From: Chloroflexota bacterium
GTDB taxonomy: Bacteria; Chloroflexota; Anaerolineae; Anaerolineales; UBA4823
Length of the DNA stretch: 42,046 nucleotides
Direction: 5' to 3'
Assembly: GCA_012798185.1 (NCBI GenBank)
Contig: JAAZNS010000037.1
Span: 1 to 42,046 of the forward strand
The notes under the pieces are model-generated. The model saw only the letters and a list, made by a program, of their open reading frames with translations, ran no database searches and was not told the origin of the DNA. Below are positions 31,471 to 39,272 of the stretch, piece by piece (the stretch's first letter is position 1; each line of letters starts with the position of its first letter). The position numbers and the translations under genes are program-made.

Positions 31471-31896
31471 ATGACCGTATATCTAACCCCCTATCGAAGA
31501 ATGTACAATCTTCGCGAAGCGATGAATCGGCTTTTCGAAGATAATATCGGAGAAGCCGCCTCAGAACGAGAAATGCTTCTGGCGATGGATATCACTGGCA
31601 GCGAAGATGCCTACGAAATCACCGCCTTTGTGCCTGGTTTGGATGCCGAGGACGTGAATATTGAGATTATCAATAATACCGTTAACATCCGTGGTGAGTT
31701 TACTTCCGAAGAGAAAAAGGATGTCCAAATTCTATCCTGCGAGCTGCCCAGCGGACGCTTTAGCCGGGTAGTAACTTTACCCACCGCATTAGATCCAGCT
31801 AAAGCTGAAGCCAATATCAAAAATGGCGTTCTCACATTACGCATCCCAAAAGCGGAAGCAGCCCGTCCAAAAGCTATAAAAGTCAAAGCTGGATAA
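31471..31896 (+). CDS. Hsp20/alpha-crystallin family small heat-shock protein
   Basis: 141 aa with an alpha-crystallin domain pattern (AYEITAFVPGLDAEDVNIEI...GVLTLRIPK). RBS GAGGAG upstream. Confidence 0.9.
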   Translation: MTVYLTPYRRMYNLREAMNRLFEDNIGEAASEREMLLAMDITGSEDAYEITAFVPGLDAEDVNIEIINNTVNIRGEFTSEEKKDVQILSCELPSGRFSRVVTLPTALDPAKAEANIKNGVLTLRIPKAEAARPKAIKVKAG

Positions 31897-31971: not shown

Positions 31972-32028
31972 AAAAAGTCATCACTGCGAAATAATCAAGA
32001 ATATTATCCCCCGTGGTGATGACTTTTT
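31972..32028 (+). terminator. possible hsp20 terminator/processing hairpin (13-bp stem AAAAAGTCATCAC/GTGATGACTTTTT, 31-nt loop)
   Basis: Perfect complementarity read from the sequence. The long loop and the U-run lying inside the stem make it atypical. Confidence 0.3.
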
Positions 32029-32129
32029 ATTCGAACGCCAGGGAAATATTCAATAAATTCGCTTACATCTCCACAGGTTTTCATAATATACTTGAGAGAG
32101 CTTCACACAAAATCAAACGGGAAGCAAAT

Positions 32130-32855
32130 ATGCTGCCGATACGTGACTCGGTTCATTCCTACACTTTTTCTGTAATCAACTGGTTAATCATCGCATTAAA
32201 TACGGTTGTTTTTCTCATTGAAATCAACTTATCGCCTGTTGCCCTAAACCGATTTATTCAGATATTTGCTCTCACCCCGGCAAATTTACATCTCAACGAT
32301 CCAACGACATTATTTAGCAATCCCATGTTGTTGATTCCGCTGATCACGCATATGTTCCTGCATGGCGGATGGTTCCATTTCTTGAGCAATATGTGGATCT
32401 TGTTTATTTTTGGGGACAATGTAGAAGACCGCATGGGATCGATCCGCTATCTTATTTTTTATCTGGCAGGTGGCGTTGTTGCAGGCGCTTTACAAACTTT
32501 TGTTTCTCCCTTTAGCGAAATACCCTCGTTAGGCGCCAGCGGTGCTATCGCAACAGTATTAGGCGCATACTTTCTGCTATATCCACGGGCACGGGTGACC
32601 ACTTTAATTCCTATGATATTTGTACCCTGGTTTGTAGAGATTCCTGCCGTCATTTACCTGGGATTCTGGTTTGTATCTCAACTTTTTTCTGGGATTGCTT
32701 CTTTAGGAGCAGCTAATGCTGCCAACATGGGTGGTGTGGCTTGGTTTGCCCATATTGGCGGTTTTGTATTCGGGTTGCTATTTGCCCGTATTTTTATTCC
32801 CCGCCGTCACCCGGCTTTCCTTCGCCAATTCCCCGACGAATATTACCCATGGTAG
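32130..32855 (+). CDS. rhomboid-family intramembrane serine protease
   Basis: Started at MLPIRDS. Motifs are HGGWFHFLSNM (H..N), GASGAI (catalytic Ser) and AHIGGF (catalytic His). The track start 32013 is a non-ATG extension. Confidence 0.85.
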   Translation: MLPIRDSVHSYTFSVINWLIIALNTVVFLIEINLSPVALNRFIQIFALTPANLHLNDPTTLFSNPMLLIPLITHMFLHGGWFHFLSNMWILFIFGDNVEDRMGSIRYLIFYLAGGVVAGALQTFVSPFSEIPSLGASGAIATVLGAYFLLYPRARVTTLIPMIFVPWFVEIPAVIYLGFWFVSQLFSGIASLGAANAANMGGVAWFAHIGGFVFGLLFARIFIPRRHPAFLRQFPDEYYPW

Positions 32856-32874
32856 CCAGGTTTGGGAGGTTTTT

Positions 32875-33720
32875 ATGGATTTTACTTTTCTACTCATGCT
32901 TTTTTTGATCATATCCTCATTGCAGCCGGTGATCCGTCAAAAAATACTAGAAGCAAACCGCACCAAGATGTTGCGCACCCTGGAAGCCAAACGCGGATCG
33001 CGGGTTATTGCCTTGATCCACCGCCAGGAAAGGTTATCCTTTTTAGGTTTTCCGCTGGCGCGCTATATTGATATTAATGATTCGGAAGAATTACTGCGGG
33101 CGATTAAGCTGACCGACCCAAAAATCCCCATCGATTTAATCCTGCACACGCCAGGAGGATTGGTGCTTGCAGCCGAACAAATTGCCACGGCACTGTGCCG
33201 CCATACAGCCAAGGTCACCGTGTTTATTCCTCATTATGCAATGTCGGGCGGCACATTAATCGCCCTGGCAGCCGATGAAATCGTTATGGATGAAAACGCT
33301 GTTTTAGGACCCGTTGACCCACAGTTAGGACAACACCCTGCTGTATCCATTCTTGCTGTATTAGATCAAAAGAACATCGATAAAGTCGATGATGAAACAC
33401 TCATCCAGGCAGATATGGCACGCAAAGCCCTGCGCCAGGTAAAAGATACCGTAAAACGCATCGTGAGCGAACGTATGACAGAAGAAGCTGCCGAAAACCT
33501 GGCAGAAATCATGACCAGCGGACGATGGACGCATGATTATCCAATTTCTGTAGAAGAAGCCCGCCAGTTAGGTCTGCCAATTAACACCGATGTCCCCACC
33601 GAAGTGTATCAGCTTATGAATTTATTCCCCCAAGCGGGCGGAGGCAGGCCGACTGTGGAATATATTCCAGTCCCCTACCGCGAACATCAGCCCGCCCCGC
33701 GGAGTAAAAATGTGTCGTAA
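32875..33720 (+). CDS. SDH-family (ClpP-fold) membrane-anchored serine protease
   Basis: Start at ATG 32875 with GGAGG at 32865-32869. There is an N-terminal TM, then RGSRVIALIHRQE...ILHTPGGLVLAAEQIA...YAMSGGTLIALAADEIVM, typical of the serine dehydrogenase proteinase family. The track start 32716 overlaps the rhomboid gene. Confidence 0.8.
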   Translation: MDFTFLLMLFLIISSLQPVIRQKILEANRTKMLRTLEAKRGSRVIALIHRQERLSFLGFPLARYIDINDSEELLRAIKLTDPKIPIDLILHTPGGLVLAAEQIATALCRHTAKVTVFIPHYAMSGGTLIALAADEIVMDENAVLGPVDPQLGQHPAVSILAVLDQKNIDKVDDETLIQADMARKALRQVKDTVKRIVSERMTEEAAENLAEIMTSGRWTHDYPISVEEARQLGLPINTDVPTEVYQLMNLFPQAGGGRPTVEYIPVPYREHQPAPRSKNVS

Positions 33721-33753: not shown

Positions 33754-34365
33754 ATGGATCAAACTGATCAAACCCCGGAACAGGGACCAGCAGATACCAC
33801 ATCTACAGCGGAACAAGCCCTGAAAAAAGAAAGCCGGATTGGTAATTTTCTGAAAACTGCCACGCGCTGGCTTTTCGGTTTGCTTATTGTGTTTGGGCTG
33901 GGTGCCCTGGCGGTTATTTTTCTGCTGTATTCCCCCACCCGGCAGACTTTACAGCAAACCCAGGCAGACCTGGAAACCGCCAGACAAAAAATTACCGACC
34001 TGGAAAGCCAGGTGCAAAAGATGGCTGCCCTTGAAACTCAAAATGCATCGCTAAAAAAGGAAGTCGATTCCAGTGTTTTACATATTAAATTATTGACCGT
34101 GCTGGCAGATGTGGATACGGCACGAGTGGCACTGGCAGAGAAAGATGCCCCTGCCGCCAAAACCGCTCTTACCAATACCGCTGCGACAATTAACCAAATA
34201 TCTACCCTGGCAGGCAGCAGCCAAAGTGAGGCAGTGAAATTTATTCAAGACCGCCTCAAGCTTGTCTTAAGCGAAATCGAGACCGACCCCGCCACTGCTC
34301 AAACCGATCTGGGCGTTTTGGCAGGAAAATTGATAGAACTCGAACAAGCTTTATTTAATAAATGA
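33754..34365 (+). CDS. single-pass membrane protein with long coiled-coil ectodomain, function unknown
   Basis: Start at MDQTDQ (RBS GAGGAG at 33741-33746). One TM (WLFGLLIVFGLGALAVIFLLY) is followed by a heptad-like Q/E/L/A-rich sequence. Confidence 0.6.
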   Translation: MDQTDQTPEQGPADTTSTAEQALKKESRIGNFLKTATRWLFGLLIVFGLGALAVIFLLYSPTRQTLQQTQADLETARQKITDLESQVQKMAALETQNASLKKEVDSSVLHIKLLTVLADVDTARVALAEKDAPAAKTALTNTAATINQISTLAGSSQSEAVKFIQDRLKLVLSEIETDPATAQTDLGVLAGKLIELEQALFNK

Positions 34366-34450: not shown

Positions 34451-35551
34451 TCAATACCTCAATACTCCCCCAATATGCTCATAATCAGCCAAGTTGAGGT
34501 CATCATGCAATACTTCGACCTCTCCGCCAGACTGTAACACATGCTTAACTGCCATTTCCACCACATCAGCTACTTTCTCAACAGTGCCACTGCATAGTGA
34601 ACAGGTTTGCGATAACCGGGAAGCAACATAACCACATTGCGTGCAGCGCTGACCGGCAACACGCAATCCTTCACGGATCAACAGCGTATGCACTCTGCCA
34701 TCGTGGACAGCTTTTAGAGTCTCTTCCATTCCTACCACACCCCCGCGTTTTTTAGCAGCATTGGTGATCACCGCATCGATTAATTTGGCTTCCCTGCGAT
34801 GCTCCGCCTCTAAACCGATTTCCATGGCTCTTTCTAAAATATCATCATGGCTGGCGGTCATGCTCATTGGGAAAGTTCCTATCACCAGACTTTGCCAGGT
34901 TTTAGGCAATTGAGAGCGAAACGCAGCAATATTATCATCGGTACCGCCGATTACAATACGGCGGACATTCTTCTCGGAGAAAAATTTCGCTGCATAATCT
35001 GCCGCTTCACGAATATTCCTGCCTGTTACTTCATCGACATAATTGGTCAACCCGGCTGTACCGCCGCGTCTGCCTTGGGCTTGAGAACCGCCGCCGCGTT
35101 TGGTACGCCGCACGCTTTCTCCCAAGACACCTTCCTGTTCGATCAATTCTCCAAGGTGGAAATAAAAAAATCGAGCGCCTTGTTTATCTACCAAAGCGAC
35201 GCCATATCCACCATAAGCATCCAGTATATCTACCAGCGGTTTTACATGCGGACGATCCCCAACCCGCACCCGACTGCGTAATGGAATTGCCAGTGAATAT
35301 ACCCGGAACCACGATGCCGGCGCACATGAAAACAAAGCCACACTGCGCCCGTTCCAGTCAAATTCATGATCGAAAAACCGTTCGACCATCTCACCATCCT
35401 CAGGCAGATTGGCTTCTTTTAGCATACTGCGCAGGCGCAACTTATGGGCATCAGCGCTCCCTTCAGATGGCTCGATATTCAAATACATACTGAGGACAGG
35501 TCCTTTCCCCTTAAATGCAAGCAATTCACGCAGATCGTTTTCAGTTAGCAT
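34451..35551 (-). CDS. archaeo-eukaryotic release factor 1 (aeRF1/Pelota/VLRF1)-like protein with Zn-ribbon insert
   Basis: 366 aa with a central loop KRGGGSQAQGRRGG (GGSQ at nt 35081-35092) and the eRF1-like domain-3 pattern AVHDGRVHTLLI. A CxxC...CxxC motif is present (C303, C306, C317, C320). The C-terminal IGGVLRY matches the eRF1/Pelota C-terminal signature. Confidence 0.75.
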   Translation of the reverse strand: MLTENDLRELLAFKGKGPVLSMYLNIEPSEGSADAHKLRLRSMLKEANLPEDGEMVERFFDHEFDWNGRSVALFSCAPASWFRVYSLAIPLRSRVRVGDRPHVKPLVDILDAYGGYGVALVDKQGARFFYFHLGELIEQEGVLGESVRRTKRGGGSQAQGRRGGTAGLTNYVDEVTGRNIREAADYAAKFFSEKNVRRIVIGGTDDNIAAFRSQLPKTWQSLVIGTFPMSMTASHDDILERAMEIGLEAEHRREAKLIDAVITNAAKKRGGVVGMEETLKAVHDGRVHTLLIREGLRVAGQRCTQCGYVASRLSQTCSLCSGTVEKVADVVEMAVKHVLQSGGEVEVLHDDLNLADYEHIGGVLRY

Positions 35552-35631
35552 CCAATTATCCTCCGTTTCATACTAAATAATAATATTTTTGGGTAAACCT
35601 TATACAAATAAATAAGCGAGTATGAACAGAT

Positions 35632-36564
35632 CTATTTCTTGCCAGCCAATTTCATGAACAATGCTTTTTGTTCCTGAGTTAATTCACGCGGAATGCGGAC
35701 ATTAACCCGTACGAATTGATCGCCGCGCTTGGAAGGGTTTTTTATCTGCGGCATTCCTTTTCCCGCCAGGCGGAAGGTTTGCCCGGGTTGAGTTCCCGGG
35801 GGAATTTTAAGCACGACCTCACCGCTCAAGGTGGGTACTTTCACTTCGCCACCCAAGACTGCTGTATATAAATCCACTTTAACTTCATTAAAAAGGTCGT
35901 CATTCTTACGCTCAATACCCGGAGAATCCTGAACATCGACGAGAATGATCAAATCACCTTTATGTCCATCCGGTGTTGAAACAGCATCTGTCATGCGGAC
36001 TTTCGTGCCAGAACGTGCCCCGGCTGGAATCTTCACTTCAAACCGTCTGCCATCCACTTCGATACGGCGCGTCGTTCCCTCGTAAGCTTCTTTCAGAGAA
36101 ATGCTGGTTCGATACTCGTAAGCAGGCTTTGGGGTTCGTGTGGTTGTCCTCGAACGAGGTATCGAGGTGCCCATATTTGGCATACCTCCGAAAATTCGGC
36201 GGAAAAATTCCGAAAAATCTCCCAAACCGCCGCCAAACAAATCGCCGATATCCCCTACTTCTACACGCACATTACCGCCGCCCGGATAGGTTGCCCATTC
36301 ATCCCAATTAAATCCACCTGGAGCACCGCGCTGCTGCCATTGGGTATACGAATCGCCCAATTGATCGTATCGAGCGCGTTTTTGCGGATCACTCAAAACC
36401 TGATAAGCTTCGTTTATCTCTTTAAACTTTTCTTCAGCCGGTTTATTATTCGGGTTACGATCCGGATGGTACTTTAAAGCCAATTTTCGGTATGCACGTT
36501 TGATTTCATCTTCACTTGCTTTTCTGTCTACACCTAATATTTTATAATAGTCTTTATAATCCAT
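35632..36564 (-). CDS. DnaJ-class J-domain co-chaperone without zinc-finger domain (CbpA-like, class II)
   Basis: J-domain DYYKILGV...YHPDRNP and a G/F-rich linker, then C-terminal substrate-binding domains. No CxxCxGxG repeats. 310 aa. Confidence 0.9.
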
Positions 36565-36628
36565 AAATGAATCTCGAATCTTATTGAAATTAAACCATCC
36601 AATTTCTAGGATAGTACAAATTAATGAC

Positions 36629-36658
36629 TTGTATAGTAATTGATTTTATGCATATAAT
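36629..36658 (+). promoter_or_regulatory. candidate promoter TTGTAT-18 nt-TATAAT for the REC-GAF/kinase operon
   Basis: Hexamers read in the AT-rich 181-bp divergent gap. The -10 is consensus and the 18-nt spacer is slightly long. Confidence 0.35.
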
Positions 36659-36745
36659 TACACCAAAGTCAAGCGAATTGGGTAACCTCTTATGGAATTC
36701 TAATTCTATCTCCCGTTTTTCACATAACCATGCTATGATTATCCT

Positions 36746-37903
36746 ATGAATTACACAGCTGAGCGAATCCTGGTCGTTGAAAATAACCCGGAAATTGTCG
36801 ATGTCATTGCCAGACAGGCTTTACAGCCGTTAGGGTATCATGTAGAAATCGTTCATTCCGCGGCAACCGCAATTCAACAAGTTGCTCATTTTTTCCCCGA
36901 TGTGATCATCACCAATCTCGTTTTACCTGGGTTAAGCGGTAAAGATCTTCTGGTTGCTCTTTCATCTCAGGGATTGGAAACACCCGTCATTGTAATCTCT
37001 GAAAAAGGAAGAGAAGGGGAGGTCATTCAGGCTTTCCGCCTGGGCGCAACCGATTACCTCTATTGGCCGACGCGCGAAACCGAAATCGTTTCGGCGGTTG
37101 AAAGGGTGCTCAAGCAGGTGCGCACACGGCGGGATCGGGAAGATTTAGCTCAAACCTTGTATCAGACTAATCAGGAACTGCAAAAAAGGGTGAGGGAACT
37201 GACCACTATTTTTGCGATAGGCAAAGCGATCACCTCGATAACCGACCAATCCAGTTTGTACGAAAAAATTGTCGAAGGTGCCATCTATGTTGCCGAAGCA
37301 GATTGTGGATGGCTGTTATTGAAAAGCGACCAGGGCAAAGATTTTATCTTAACCGCCTCACGGAATATGCCGAAATCGATCACCGAAAAAACAAATCACC
37401 CCTGGGATGATGGGATCAGTGCGCTGGTGAGTATATCTGGCGAAATGCTCACCATCCACGGCGATCCATTGAAGCGGTTTAAAATTTCGCAGTTTGGCAA
37501 GTCTGCTTTGGTTGCTCCTCTCAAGGCTAATAAAACTGTAATTGGTTTATTGGTCATGGTGAGAAAAACAGCAAAACCATTCAGCCAGAGTACTCAAGAA
37601 TTAATCGAGGCTGTAGCGGATTATGCCTCAATCTCACTGATTAATTCACGATATTTTCGAGTGCTGGAAGAGCGGGTGCGAAATTCTCAATTAGCAGTCG
37701 AAGCCGCCCAAGCTAATGAGCATAAGAAAGATGAAAAGTTAGCGAATTTAAACTACCTGATCCTTCCCCAATTGAATGAATCTATGGAAATGGCTGCCTC
37801 ATTATTGATCGAAGGCGAAAACTTAGACGATAATCAGCGTGAAAAATTACACACACTGCAGGATAAACTTCAAAAAATTTCCGGTATATTACTGAATGAC
37901 TAA
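36746..37903 (+). CDS. receiver-like (pseudo-receiver) + GAF domain protein with C-terminal coiled coil
   Basis: REC fold pattern but EN for the acidic pair, Asn57 at the phospho-acceptor position (PDVIITN, nt 36914-36916) and Trp107 in place of the conserved Lys (DYLYWPT). It is followed by a GAF-like region. Confidence 0.85.
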   Translation: MNYTAERILVVENNPEIVDVIARQALQPLGYHVEIVHSAATAIQQVAHFFPDVIITNLVLPGLSGKDLLVALSSQGLETPVIVISEKGREGEVIQAFRLGATDYLYWPTRETEIVSAVERVLKQVRTRRDREDLAQTLYQTNQELQKRVRELTTIFAIGKAITSITDQSSLYEKIVEGAIYVAEADCGWLLLKSDQGKDFILTASRNMPKSITEKTNHPWDDGISALVSISGEMLTIHGDPLKRFKISQFGKSALVAPLKANKTVIGLLVMVRKTAKPFSQSTQELIEAVADYASISLINSRYFRVLEERVRNSQLAVEAAQANEHKKDEKLANLNYLILPQLNESMEMAASLLIEGENLDDNQREKLHTLQDKLQKISGILLND

Positions 37904-39272
37904 ATCTCAGATATTAATACTCACATCGAATGATGAAATTGGGGAAAAACTCACGAACATATTACATCAAAATGAAGATTTTCACATCTCGCGGGTAAAT
38001 GATGTAATCAATCTCGAATCGGCAATAGCCAGCACTTCGCCGGATTTAATTATTTGGGATGGGCAGGATAATCTCACTGATCTCCCCCAGCTTTTGACGA
38101 ATTTCAACGACCACCACGCCGAAATCTCTGTCATCCTGCTGGGAAACGAACCGACTTATGCAATGGTTCTCAATGCACTACGCGGGGGGTGTGTGGATTA
38201 TCTTTGCCCGCCATTTATTGAAGAAGATGTTCTGAGCATCGTCAATAACAGTTTAAAGCGCAGCAGAAAATCGGAACAAAGTCAAATTATTCTCTCCCGG
38301 ATGACTGAAGGGATTATGGTTATTAATCCCGAAGGCAGGATGATCTTTATTAATCACGCAGCAAAACAGACCTTCGAGCTGGAAACAGGGAATTTAATTG
38401 GCAAACATTATAAAGAGATTCTCCACAACACCGATTTAATAGCGCTGCTCGAACCTTACCACACTGCCGAAAATTTACATGGGGAAATTTCGTTGTCAGA
38501 CGGCAGGGTTCTCAATTGCCAGGTAACAACGATTCCCGAAATTGGGTATTTAATTTCTTTACAAGAAATCACCCACCTCAAGGAATTGGACCGCATCAAG
38601 ACCGATTTTGTAAATGCTGTATCGCACGATCTGCGGTCTCCCTTGACCGCAATTTTAGGATATGTTGAATTGCTGGAACGGGTTGGAGAAGTCAATCCCC
38701 AGCAAAAAGAATTCATTCAACGCGTTCGTCTTAGTGTTCAATCGATCACTGCTCTGATCAACGATTTGCTTGATCTGGGCCGTATCGAAGCCGGCTTCGA
38801 TAGTCAAAAGGAAATTACACCTTTAGGCGCTATTGTGCGTTATTCACTAGAAGGATTATCCAACACTATTACCTCCCGGTCACAAGTTTTAGAGCTGGAT
38901 ATTCCTGCTGAAACACCATTTGTATTAGGCAATCCTGTTCGGCTAAGGCAAATGTGTTTTAATCTAATCAGTAACGCCATCAAATATGCCCCAATTGGCG
39001 GAAAAATACGCATTCAAATAAGTGCCACCGATGAACATGTCATCATGCAGGTTTCAGATAATGGACCGGGGATCGCACCTCAAGATCAACCCCATATTTT
39101 CGACCGATTCTATCGGGCAAGCAACCAGCCTGCCGACGCCTCGGGCACAGGGTTGGGTCTGGCAATCGTAAAATCGATTGTCGAAGATCATCAGGGGCGG
39201 GTATGGGTAGATTCTTTACTTGGGCATGGTTCTACATTTACCGTCGTTTTACCGATTGTTGAAAAGCCATAA
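37896..39272 (+). CDS. cytoplasmic sensor histidine kinase (degenerate N-terminal REC, PAS, HisKA, HATPase_c)
   Basis: H-box FVNAVSHDLRSPL, N-box NLISNAIKY, G1 DNGPGI, F-box FDRFYR and G2 GTGLGLAIV. No TM segments. 8-nt overlap with the upstream gene. Confidence 0.9.
   Translation: MTKSQILILTSNDEIGEKLTNILHQNEDFHISRVNDVINLESAIASTSPDLIIWDGQDNLTDLPQLLTNFNDHHAEISVILLGNEPTYAMVLNALRGGCVDYLCPPFIEEDVLSIVNNSLKRSRKSEQSQIILSRMTEGIMVINPEGRMIFINHAAKQTFELETGNLIGKHYKEILHNTDLIALLEPYHTAENLHGEISLSDGRVLNCQVTTIPEIGYLISLQEITHLKELDRIKTDFVNAVSHDLRSPLTAILGYVELLERVGEVNPQQKEFIQRVRLSVQSITALINDLLDLGRIEAGFDSQKEITPLGAIVRYSLEGLSNTITSRSQVLELDIPAETPFVLGNPVRLRQMCFNLISNAIKYAPIGGKIRIQISATDEHVIMQVSDNGPGIAPQDQPHIFDRFYRASNQPADASGTGLGLAIVKSIVEDHQGRVWVDSLLGHGSTFTVVLPIVEKP

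Follow-up and report, generated by a model that had tools for sequence, protein, structure and literature searches.

A Balon-like protein of baeRF-1 family 10, a probable ribosomal A-site factor, encoded beside a DnaJ-type co-chaperone in an uncultured Anaerolineae bacterium

The system under study was a minus-strand gene pair, dnaJ–baeRF, located in positions 1 to 42,046 of contig JAAZNS010000037.1 (assembly GCA_012798185.1; Chloroflexota, Anaerolineae, Anaerolineales); this 42,046-nucleotide (nt) stretch at its full length is referred to below as the window. The pair encoded a J-domain co-chaperone (J-protein) and, downstream of it, a protein of 366 amino acids (aa) with a Gly/Arg-rich loop and a zinc ribbon (Table 1). 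Judged by its sequence, it is a sound, if rather ordinary, further relative of the Balon family, with a DnaJ-type co-chaperone upstream. It is probably a Balon-type factor that would occupy the ribosomal A site, pausing and protecting ribosomes in proteotoxic stress, and that would be co-regulated with DnaJ, HtrA, and Hsp20. With this assignment the Balon/baeRF-1 family also takes in uncultured Anaerolineae, and the deeply conserved putative operon dnaJ–(htrA)–baeRF lends support to the idea that ribosome silencing belongs to the bacterial protein-damage response.

Residues 101 to 245 of the 366-aa protein matched Pfam PF18854 (baeRF_family10) at 139.9 bits (cut-off 27.1), the next-best baeRF family being family 2 (34.5 bits); the weaker Pfam matches comprised baeRF families 2, 3, and 12 plus Host_attach. 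Of the baeRF, VLRF1, and Host_attach families that the initial annotation had proposed for comparison, baeRF was matched, Host_attach weakly so, and VLRF1 not at all at E 0.01 or better. A profile search of the whole genome retrieved PF18854 from one gene only, that of the 366-aa protein. The best sequence match in PDB was the Balon homologue Msmeg1130 (E 1.3e-8), followed by Rv2629 and then eRF1, while the aRF1 model TIGR03676 scored below its cut-off (55.3 versus 234.7 bits). The Msmeg1130 segment, as aligned by HMMER, itself scored best in baeRF_family10 (126.7 bits), and thus an experimentally characterised hibernation factor is present in the Pfam family of the 366-aa protein; the Rv2629 segment scored best in baeRF family 2.

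An AlphaFold (AF2) model of the 366-aa protein was built from 23 orthologues and compared with known structures by Foldseek. The top match was ribosome-bound Msmeg1130 (8v9l, E 7e-20, template modeling score [TM] 0.62), and the Balon structures 8v9l, 8v9j, 8rdv, and 8v9k were matched at E 7e-20 to 1e-15. aRF1 (4af1, E 9e-18) and eRF1 (TM about 0.6) were matched equally well, and Pelota/Dom34 more weakly. The model thus supported the three-domain aeRF1-like fold on which the earlier proposal had relied.

The three domains differed in what they retained. The N-terminal domain contained no NIKS stop-codon motif in its sequence or elsewhere in the protein, and the tip of its helical hairpin (residues 45 to 54) was variable across orthologues. 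At the junction with the middle domain, the segment P101-x-x-(K/R)104-P105-L106 was conserved in the family set, which comprised 107 full-length proteins, each representing a cluster at 50% identity (P101 in 88, K/R at 104 in 71, P105 in 91, and L106 in 100); K104-P105 aligned with H-P of Msmeg1130 IHPL, and the surrounding loop was disordered in the model. The C-terminal domain (residues 253 to 366) matched PF03465 (eRF1_3) at 25.0 bits, so the eRF1-like third domain seen earlier was real as a match and yet fell slightly under the 25.8-bit cut-off. The protein ended in IGGVLRY, conserved as G-x-x-L-R-Y (G361 in 98/107, L364 and R365 each in 101/107). Each Cys of the zinc ribbon was kept in 99 to 100 of the 107 representatives (about 93%), and all were invariant in sequence sets A1 and A2. 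In many baeRF families the site of the classical aeRF-1 Zn ribbon is taken by a two-strand insert, which may be a degenerate ribbon (PMC6514570).

The ribosomal A site is the place of action of Balon and its homologues from mycobacteria, whose binding there does not depend on mRNA (Helena-Bueno 2024, PMC10901736). Functional GGQ and NIKS motifs are missing from these proteins, and their hallmarks are an HP motif, a lasso loop, a bL27 trap, and an EF-Tu-facing beta-hairpin. Typical neighbours of their genes, in stress operons, are Hsp20, DnaK, DnaJ, RaiA, and others, and hypoxia activates Msmeg1130 (PMC10901736). The statement of the initial annotation that bacterial aeRF1 homologues had no experimentally defined role was therefore out of date. 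No Chloroflexi or Anaerolinea entries were found in two supplementary files of that study. Three comparisons were drawn with characterised proteins: (i) Msmeg1130 (PDB 8v9j and 8v9l; NF052288) was the best match by both sequence and fold, and it shared with the 366-aa protein the Pfam family, the three-domain aeRF1 layout, the lack of NIKS and of a canonical GGQ, a stress-gene context, and the aligned Pro-Leu segment at the N/M junction (IHPL in Msmeg1130 and VKPL in the 366-aa protein), but it differed in overall identity (about 18 to 19%) and in the loop (ERAGQMREQRQ versus KRGGGSQAQGRRGG), while the 366-aa protein retained the GG pair and the Cys4 ribbon and had DnaJ, HtrA, and Hsp20 as neighbours; (ii) P. 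urativorans Balon (8rd8, 8rdv, and 8rdw) and Rv2629 (8v9k), both A-site factors whose published neighbours include Hsp20, DnaK, and DnaJ, shared the aeRF1 fold (Foldseek E about 1e-15), but Rv2629 belonged to Pfam family 2 and P. urativorans Balon was not retrieved by sequence search; and (iii) aRF1/eRF1 shared the fold, the GG of the loop (aligned with that of GGQ), and the classical insertion site of the C-domain Zn ribbon, but the 366-aa protein lacked NIKS, had Gly at the position of the catalytic Gln, and came from a bacterium with its own RF-1-domain release factors.

The course of events proposed for a Balon-type factor at this locus is as follows. The 366-aa protein would be made together with the class-B DnaJ from one stress-responsive promoter, with htrA joining the unit in many relatives, and would enter the ribosomal A site while proteins suffer damage. 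Its N-domain and K/R-P-L segment would lie at the decoding centre, where no stop codon would be read; the middle domain would place its Gly/Arg-rich loop at or beside the peptidyl-transferase centre; and the zinc-ribbon-bearing C-domain would be turned toward the EF-Tu binding site. Ribosomes would as a result be paused and protected, and peptidyl-tRNA would not be hydrolysed. The link with DnaJ would be one of co-regulation, fewer new chains being made while chaperones and proteases clear the damage, and the two proteins would form no dedicated hand-off pair.

The loop was the feature that could speak for an active enzyme instead. The stretch KRGGGSQAQGRRGG (K151-RGGGSQAQGRRG-G164) mapped exactly to nt 35060 to 35101. 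In the HMMER alignment, R-G-G-Q-S of eRF1 was paired with R152-G153-G154-G155-S156 of the 366-aa protein, so that the position of the eRF1 catalytic Gln was taken by G155 and not by Q157, which stood two residues on; in the baeRF family 10 consensus the same position was Trp. The GGQ tripeptide was absent, but the GG pair was retained with a Gln further along, and the family 10 consensus HKQGGWSQA(R/N)(F/Y)QRH was still similar to eRF1 HGRGGQSALRFAR. G153-G154-G155-S156-Q157 fitted the GxuQ/GGxSQ loop motif of the VLRF-1 clade, with a Gln that was not reliably conserved.

Conservation of the loop was counted in two sets, the 107 family representatives and 162 close Anaerolineae orthologues. 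In the close set, the flanking KRGGGS and GRRGG were nearly invariant, and residue 157 was Q in 142, A in 9, S in 5, T in 4, R in 1, and M in 1, giving retention of Q157 in 88% and replacement in 12%. Syntenic orthologues from the same taxonomic order carried GGAST (51% identity) or GGGDT (42%) without the Gln, Q157 being missing from the syntenic orthologues L088, L089, L097, and L099. In the family set, the residue-157 column held Q in 36 (34%), A in 25, E in 15, and S in 10, and any Gln within four residues after GG was found in only 39, while G153 and G154 were kept in 87 and 94, respectively (81 to 88%). In the phylogenetic tree, the query fell, with 99% support, in a clade of 38 rows, only 4 of them with Gln, and the strongly supported branches alone required at least 10 changes of the combined Gln/GG/Zn-ribbon state. 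Judged by these alignments, Q157 is the least constrained residue of the loop. The initial annotation had named lack of conservation of the GGSQ Gln among orthologues as one finding that would refute its proposal, and such a lack was largely what the counts for close, syntenic, and family-wide sequences showed.

A 9-residue insert, QGRRGGTAG (Q159 to G167, following Q157-A158; window 35060 to 35086), lay in the loop and was specific to the clade, being absent from 91 to 94 of the 107 representatives. In the form GRRGGTAG(Q/L) it resembled the preceding KRGGGSQAQ, with R, GG, S/T, and a final Q in most orthologues. The insert may have arisen long ago by tandem duplication of the GG loop.

These data bear on a first alternative, in which the 366-aa protein would be an active stop-codon-independent peptidyl-tRNA hydrolase whose GG(G)SQ loop would reach the peptidyl-transferase centre in stress and free nascent chains from stalled ribosomes, with the co-expressed J-protein passing them to DnaK, much as had been proposed at the outset. 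It is favoured by a loop that corresponds in position to the GGQ loop, by the frequency of GG in the family and its invariance in the clade, and by the retention of Q157 in most close orthologues; the Gln has nevertheless disappeared from syntenic orthologues and from most members of the clade around the query, the eRF1 Gln position is filled by Gly or Trp, the nearest characterised family member is a non-releasing hibernation factor, and two RF-1-domain proteins are already encoded in the genome. According to Burroughs and Aravind (2019, PMC6514570), most baeRF-1 families lack the catalytic Gln, but family 10 stands out by a well-conserved Gln that "could potentially function" in peptidyl hydrolysis; the catalytic hypothesis has accordingly been in print since 2019. 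In the literature search, no later paper was found that tested the family-10 hydrolase idea or Gln-bearing Balon homologues as hydrolases, nor was biochemical evidence met with for any baeRF hydrolase. On balance, such a hydrolase is doubtful. The fold, the family, the homology of the loop, and the chaperone link of the earlier proposal found support, while Gln-dependent hydrolysis and hand-off of chains by the J-protein to Hsp70 did not.

Several observations nevertheless weigh against a Balon-type, non-releasing factor, and they fall into two groups. The first concerns kinship. The AF2 model was only moderate (predicted local distance difference test [pLDDT] 74) and left both key loops disordered (residues 88 to 114 and 148 to 168, with pLDDT below 50 for the latter); the protein was only about 18 to 20% identical to the solved Balons; an intact Cys4 ribbon was present, probably at the place where Balon carries a beta-hairpin; and all three NCBIfam "ribosome hibernation factor" models remained sub-threshold, namely NF052288 (MSMEG_1130 model; 96.2 bits, cut-off 480), NF052289 (Rv2629 model; 64.7 bits, cut-off 320), and NF052287 (AOC03_06830 model; 52.5 bits, cut-off 330). 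With the Balon equivalog cut-offs so far from being reached, the 366-aa protein is to be regarded as a distant relative and not as an equivalog. The second concerns the loop: the GG pair was strongly conserved in the family and invariant in the close clade, and the family motif GGWSQxRFQR preserved much of eRF1 GGQSALRFAR, a degree of retention that would seem to exceed the needs of a mere plug. In RF1 and RF2, mutagenesis indicates that hydrolysis depends on the glycines more than on the side chain of the Gln. Because the GG pair was well conserved and the glycines matter more, variability of the Gln leaves the catalytic reading alive.

In its boldest form, that reading would make the Anaerolineae family-10 protein one whose catalytic loop still works, or has come to work again, and which serves as a heat-stress-induced, stop-codon-independent nascent-chain release factor; it draws on the invariant GG, the Gln at +2, and the second RRGG copy, and is unlikely. 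If GG-retaining family-10 members do hydrolyse peptidyl-tRNA, the family would hold release enzymes besides A-site plugs, and the Balon family would then consist of silencers and true releasers, with a chaperone-coupled bacterial release analogous to eukaryotic ribosome quality control (RQC).

A second alternative follows from the loop motif and would equate the 366-aa protein with Vms1/ANKZF1, as a hydrolase or tRNA CCA nuclease acting on split 50S–peptidyl-tRNA in bacterial RQC. GGxSQ has been described in aVLRF-1 and acVLRF-1 (PMC6514570), GGGSQ fitted it, and the loop was longer than that of eRF1, as in the Vms1/ANKZF1 and VLRF-1 clade. Unlike that clade, the 366-aa protein kept the three-domain tRNA-mimic layout with a full Pelota-type C-terminal domain, which aVLRF-1 lacks. 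The genome (3.94 Mb, 94.5% complete) yielded no match to acVLRF1 (PF18859) and no RqcH/NFACT (RqcH/NEMF partner), and a role in 50S-RQC is without support because RqcH/NFACT was not found. Such an identity is hardly credible, and membership of the VLRF1/Vms1 family was rejected, since no VLRF1 Pfam model matched the protein at E 0.01 or better. The Rv2629 Balon fragment also scored slightly above the gathering score of acVLRF1 (27.3 versus 27.1 bits); because it passed both, the Pfam VLRF1 and baeRF models cross-react at the margin.

The gene neighbourhood was compared across 80 Anaerolineae loci, 73 of which had enough upstream sequence to judge. dnaJ was linked to the baeRF gene in 52 of these 73, in two layouts: (i) dnaJ directly upstream on the same strand (21 loci) and (ii) dnaJ separated from the baeRF gene by a single additional gene (31 loci, including L004, L010, L012, and L013); in the remaining 21, dnaJ was missing and the REC-GAF gene was directly divergent. 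This additional gene encoded an exported protease of the HtrA/DegP type, about 400 aa long, in which Trypsin_2 (119.6 bits) and PDZ domains were matched and the N terminus was signal-like. The two-gene layout without htrA, as in the window, was the minority form. The adjacency of the J-protein gene noted at the start was thus upheld as linkage, but not as strict adjacency. Of 59 orthologous loci, 30 had an Hsp20 gene no more than 5 kb downstream. A periplasmic protease within the putative operon favours a shared proteotoxic-stress regulon over a physical pair of J-protein and release factor, and the intervening htrA in the 31 loci likewise speaks against the hydrolase that hands its chains to the J-protein, although dnaJ linkage, recurring in other gene orders in distant Chloroflexota, is a point in favour of that hydrolase.

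Distant Chloroflexota homologues (24 to 32% identity) showed chaperone and protease neighbours in varied arrangements: dnaJ upstream (L083), Hsp20 adjacent (L084 and L086), and HtrA adjacent (L101); in genus g154, a class-B dnaJ lay immediately downstream of the baeRF gene on the same strand. The g154 proteins, like the homologues L095, L096, L098, L102, and L106 to L108 of one Chloroflexota genus, have lost GG, Gln, and every Cys of the ribbon and yet are linked to dnaJ, so that homologues without the loop were DnaJ-linked too, a further point against the hydrolase. The seven numbered homologues bore an extra insert before the P-Y-I-A-P-L segment. The close orthologues L013 and L015, which lacked the Gln, also retained the operon. 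Because g154 and L013/L015 kept the linkage without Gln, the chaperone link is independent of the catalytic-looking loop.

A third alternative holds that the dnaJ adjacency is an inherited gene order without function, the protein being a housekeeping or non-ribosomal one. Synteny of the close loci was not independent evidence, because all 80 came from one class and the loci are related; 21 of the 73 had no dnaJ; and of 151 genomes sampled from the class, 111 had the family and 40 did not, as against 61 of 201 from the phylum, baeRF family 10 being common but dispensable. Against this, the chaperone and protease neighbours recurred in distant homologues with DnaJ upstream or downstream, Hsp20, or HtrA, chaperone neighbours have been reported across phyla for Balon genes (PMC10901736), and the fold and the family are ribosome-specific. 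An order without function is therefore improbable.

The J-protein had DnaJ (PF00226, 107.9 bits) and DnaJ_C (PF01556, 144.3 bits) as its sole Pfam matches, with no match to a zinc-finger domain in the Pfam search. Its translation contained the HPD motif within KYHPDRN and a Gly/Phe-rich linker between the J domain and DnaJ_C, and with this combination (HPD, Gly/Phe linker, DnaJ_C, and no Cys-rich zinc finger) it was placed among class-B (type II) J-domain proteins. It resembled E. coli CbpA in all these points, but it missed the cut-off of the CbpA equivalog NF007618 (147.3 bits, cut-off 403), as well as that of the NCBIfam DnaJ equivalog (273 bits, cut-off 377), and the gene downstream of it was not a cbpM-type modulator. 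The genome encoded five J-domain proteins, this one included. The open reading frames (ORFs) and Pfam matches agreed with the initial annotation on a CbpA-type J-protein (HPD present, no Zn finger) followed after 80 nt by the 366-aa protein and on the Hsp20, rhomboid, and ClpP-fold protease genes converging on the locus, and the loop position, the CxxC-N10-CxxC insert, and the IGGVLRY end were all read in the translation.

Sequence around the pair was consistent with expression as a unit. A ribosome-binding site, GGAGGA, lay at 35559 to 35564, 7 nt before the ATG of the 366-aa ORF, and a terminator scan of the 80-nt gap gave no terminator-like hairpin; co-transcription of dnaJ and the baeRF gene, and their induction by stress, would accord with these signals. 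Upstream of dnaJ, a −35 block GCTTGACTT and a −10 block GCATACAAT recurred in 28 and 27, respectively, of 77 orthologous upstream regions. The conserved blocks GCTTGACTT and GCGCATACAAT (window 36565 to 36745 and the orthologous upstream regions) looked like a sigma-70-type operon promoter, and a third conserved block, AATCATAGCATGG, was found just upstream of the divergent REC-GAF start at about 36727 to 36739 of the window. No CIRCE/HAIR-like palindromic operators were seen upstream of dnaJ or hsp20 or in a 9-mer survey of the 77 upstream regions. Two RF-1-domain genes and, elsewhere in the genome, a gene for HPF were also encoded.

Table 1. Coordinates of features in the window
Feature	Position (nt)	Strand	Basis or remark
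Hsp20 small heat-shock protein	31471..31896	+	PF00011 at 74.3 bits
366-aa aeRF1-fold protein, baeRF-1 family 10 (Balon superfamily)	34451..35551	-	Pfam, Foldseek
C-terminal eRF1_3/Pelota-type domain, residues 253-366	34454..34795	-	PF03465
Cys4 zinc ribbon inserted in C-domain (C303, C306, C317, C320)	34592..34645	-	C303-x2-C306-N10-C317-x2-C320
Middle domain (RNase H-fold, GGQ-loop), residues 101-245	34817..35251	-	PF18854 extent
Gly/Arg-rich loop, residues 148-168, RRTKRGGGSQAQGRRGGTAGL	35048..35110	-	eRF1 GGQ-loop homologue
P101-x-x-(K/R)104-P105-L106 segment	35234-35251	-	Aligns with Msmeg1130 GPFIHPL and eRF1 KFHTEAL
N-terminal domain, residues 1-100	35252..35551	-	Alignment
Intergenic gap, 80 nt, between J-protein ORF and 366-aa ORF	35552..35631	-	
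Class-B (CbpA-like) J-domain co-chaperone, 310 aa	35632..36564	-	Pfam
Promoter-like site TTGACT-18-TAAAAT upstream of dnaJ	36643..36672	-	10/12 consensus positions
Divergent REC-GAF protein and hybrid PAS histidine kinase	36746..39272	+	Pfam

Two further gene groups flanked the pair. The REC-GAF gene was divergent upstream in 48 of 69 loci; its product had no recognisable DNA-binding domain, and its ORF overlapped the start of the hybrid REC-PAS histidine kinase by 8 nt. With the dnaJ-less loci counted, the REC-GAF/kinase pair tracked the baeRF gene more steadily than dnaJ did; that this pair might regulate the dnaJ–baeRF operon is only a guess. The convergent plus-strand run consisted of Hsp20, rhomboid, SDH/ClpP-fold protease, and coiled-coil membrane protein genes, ended at 34365, and pointed toward the 3′ end of the dnaJ–baeRF operon. 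In the mechanical ORF list, the rhomboid ORF (32013 to 32855) and the SDH/ClpP-fold protease ORF (32716 to 33720) shared 140 nt; because their Pfam matches began at residues 109 and 54, respectively, the true starts of both genes probably lie further downstream.

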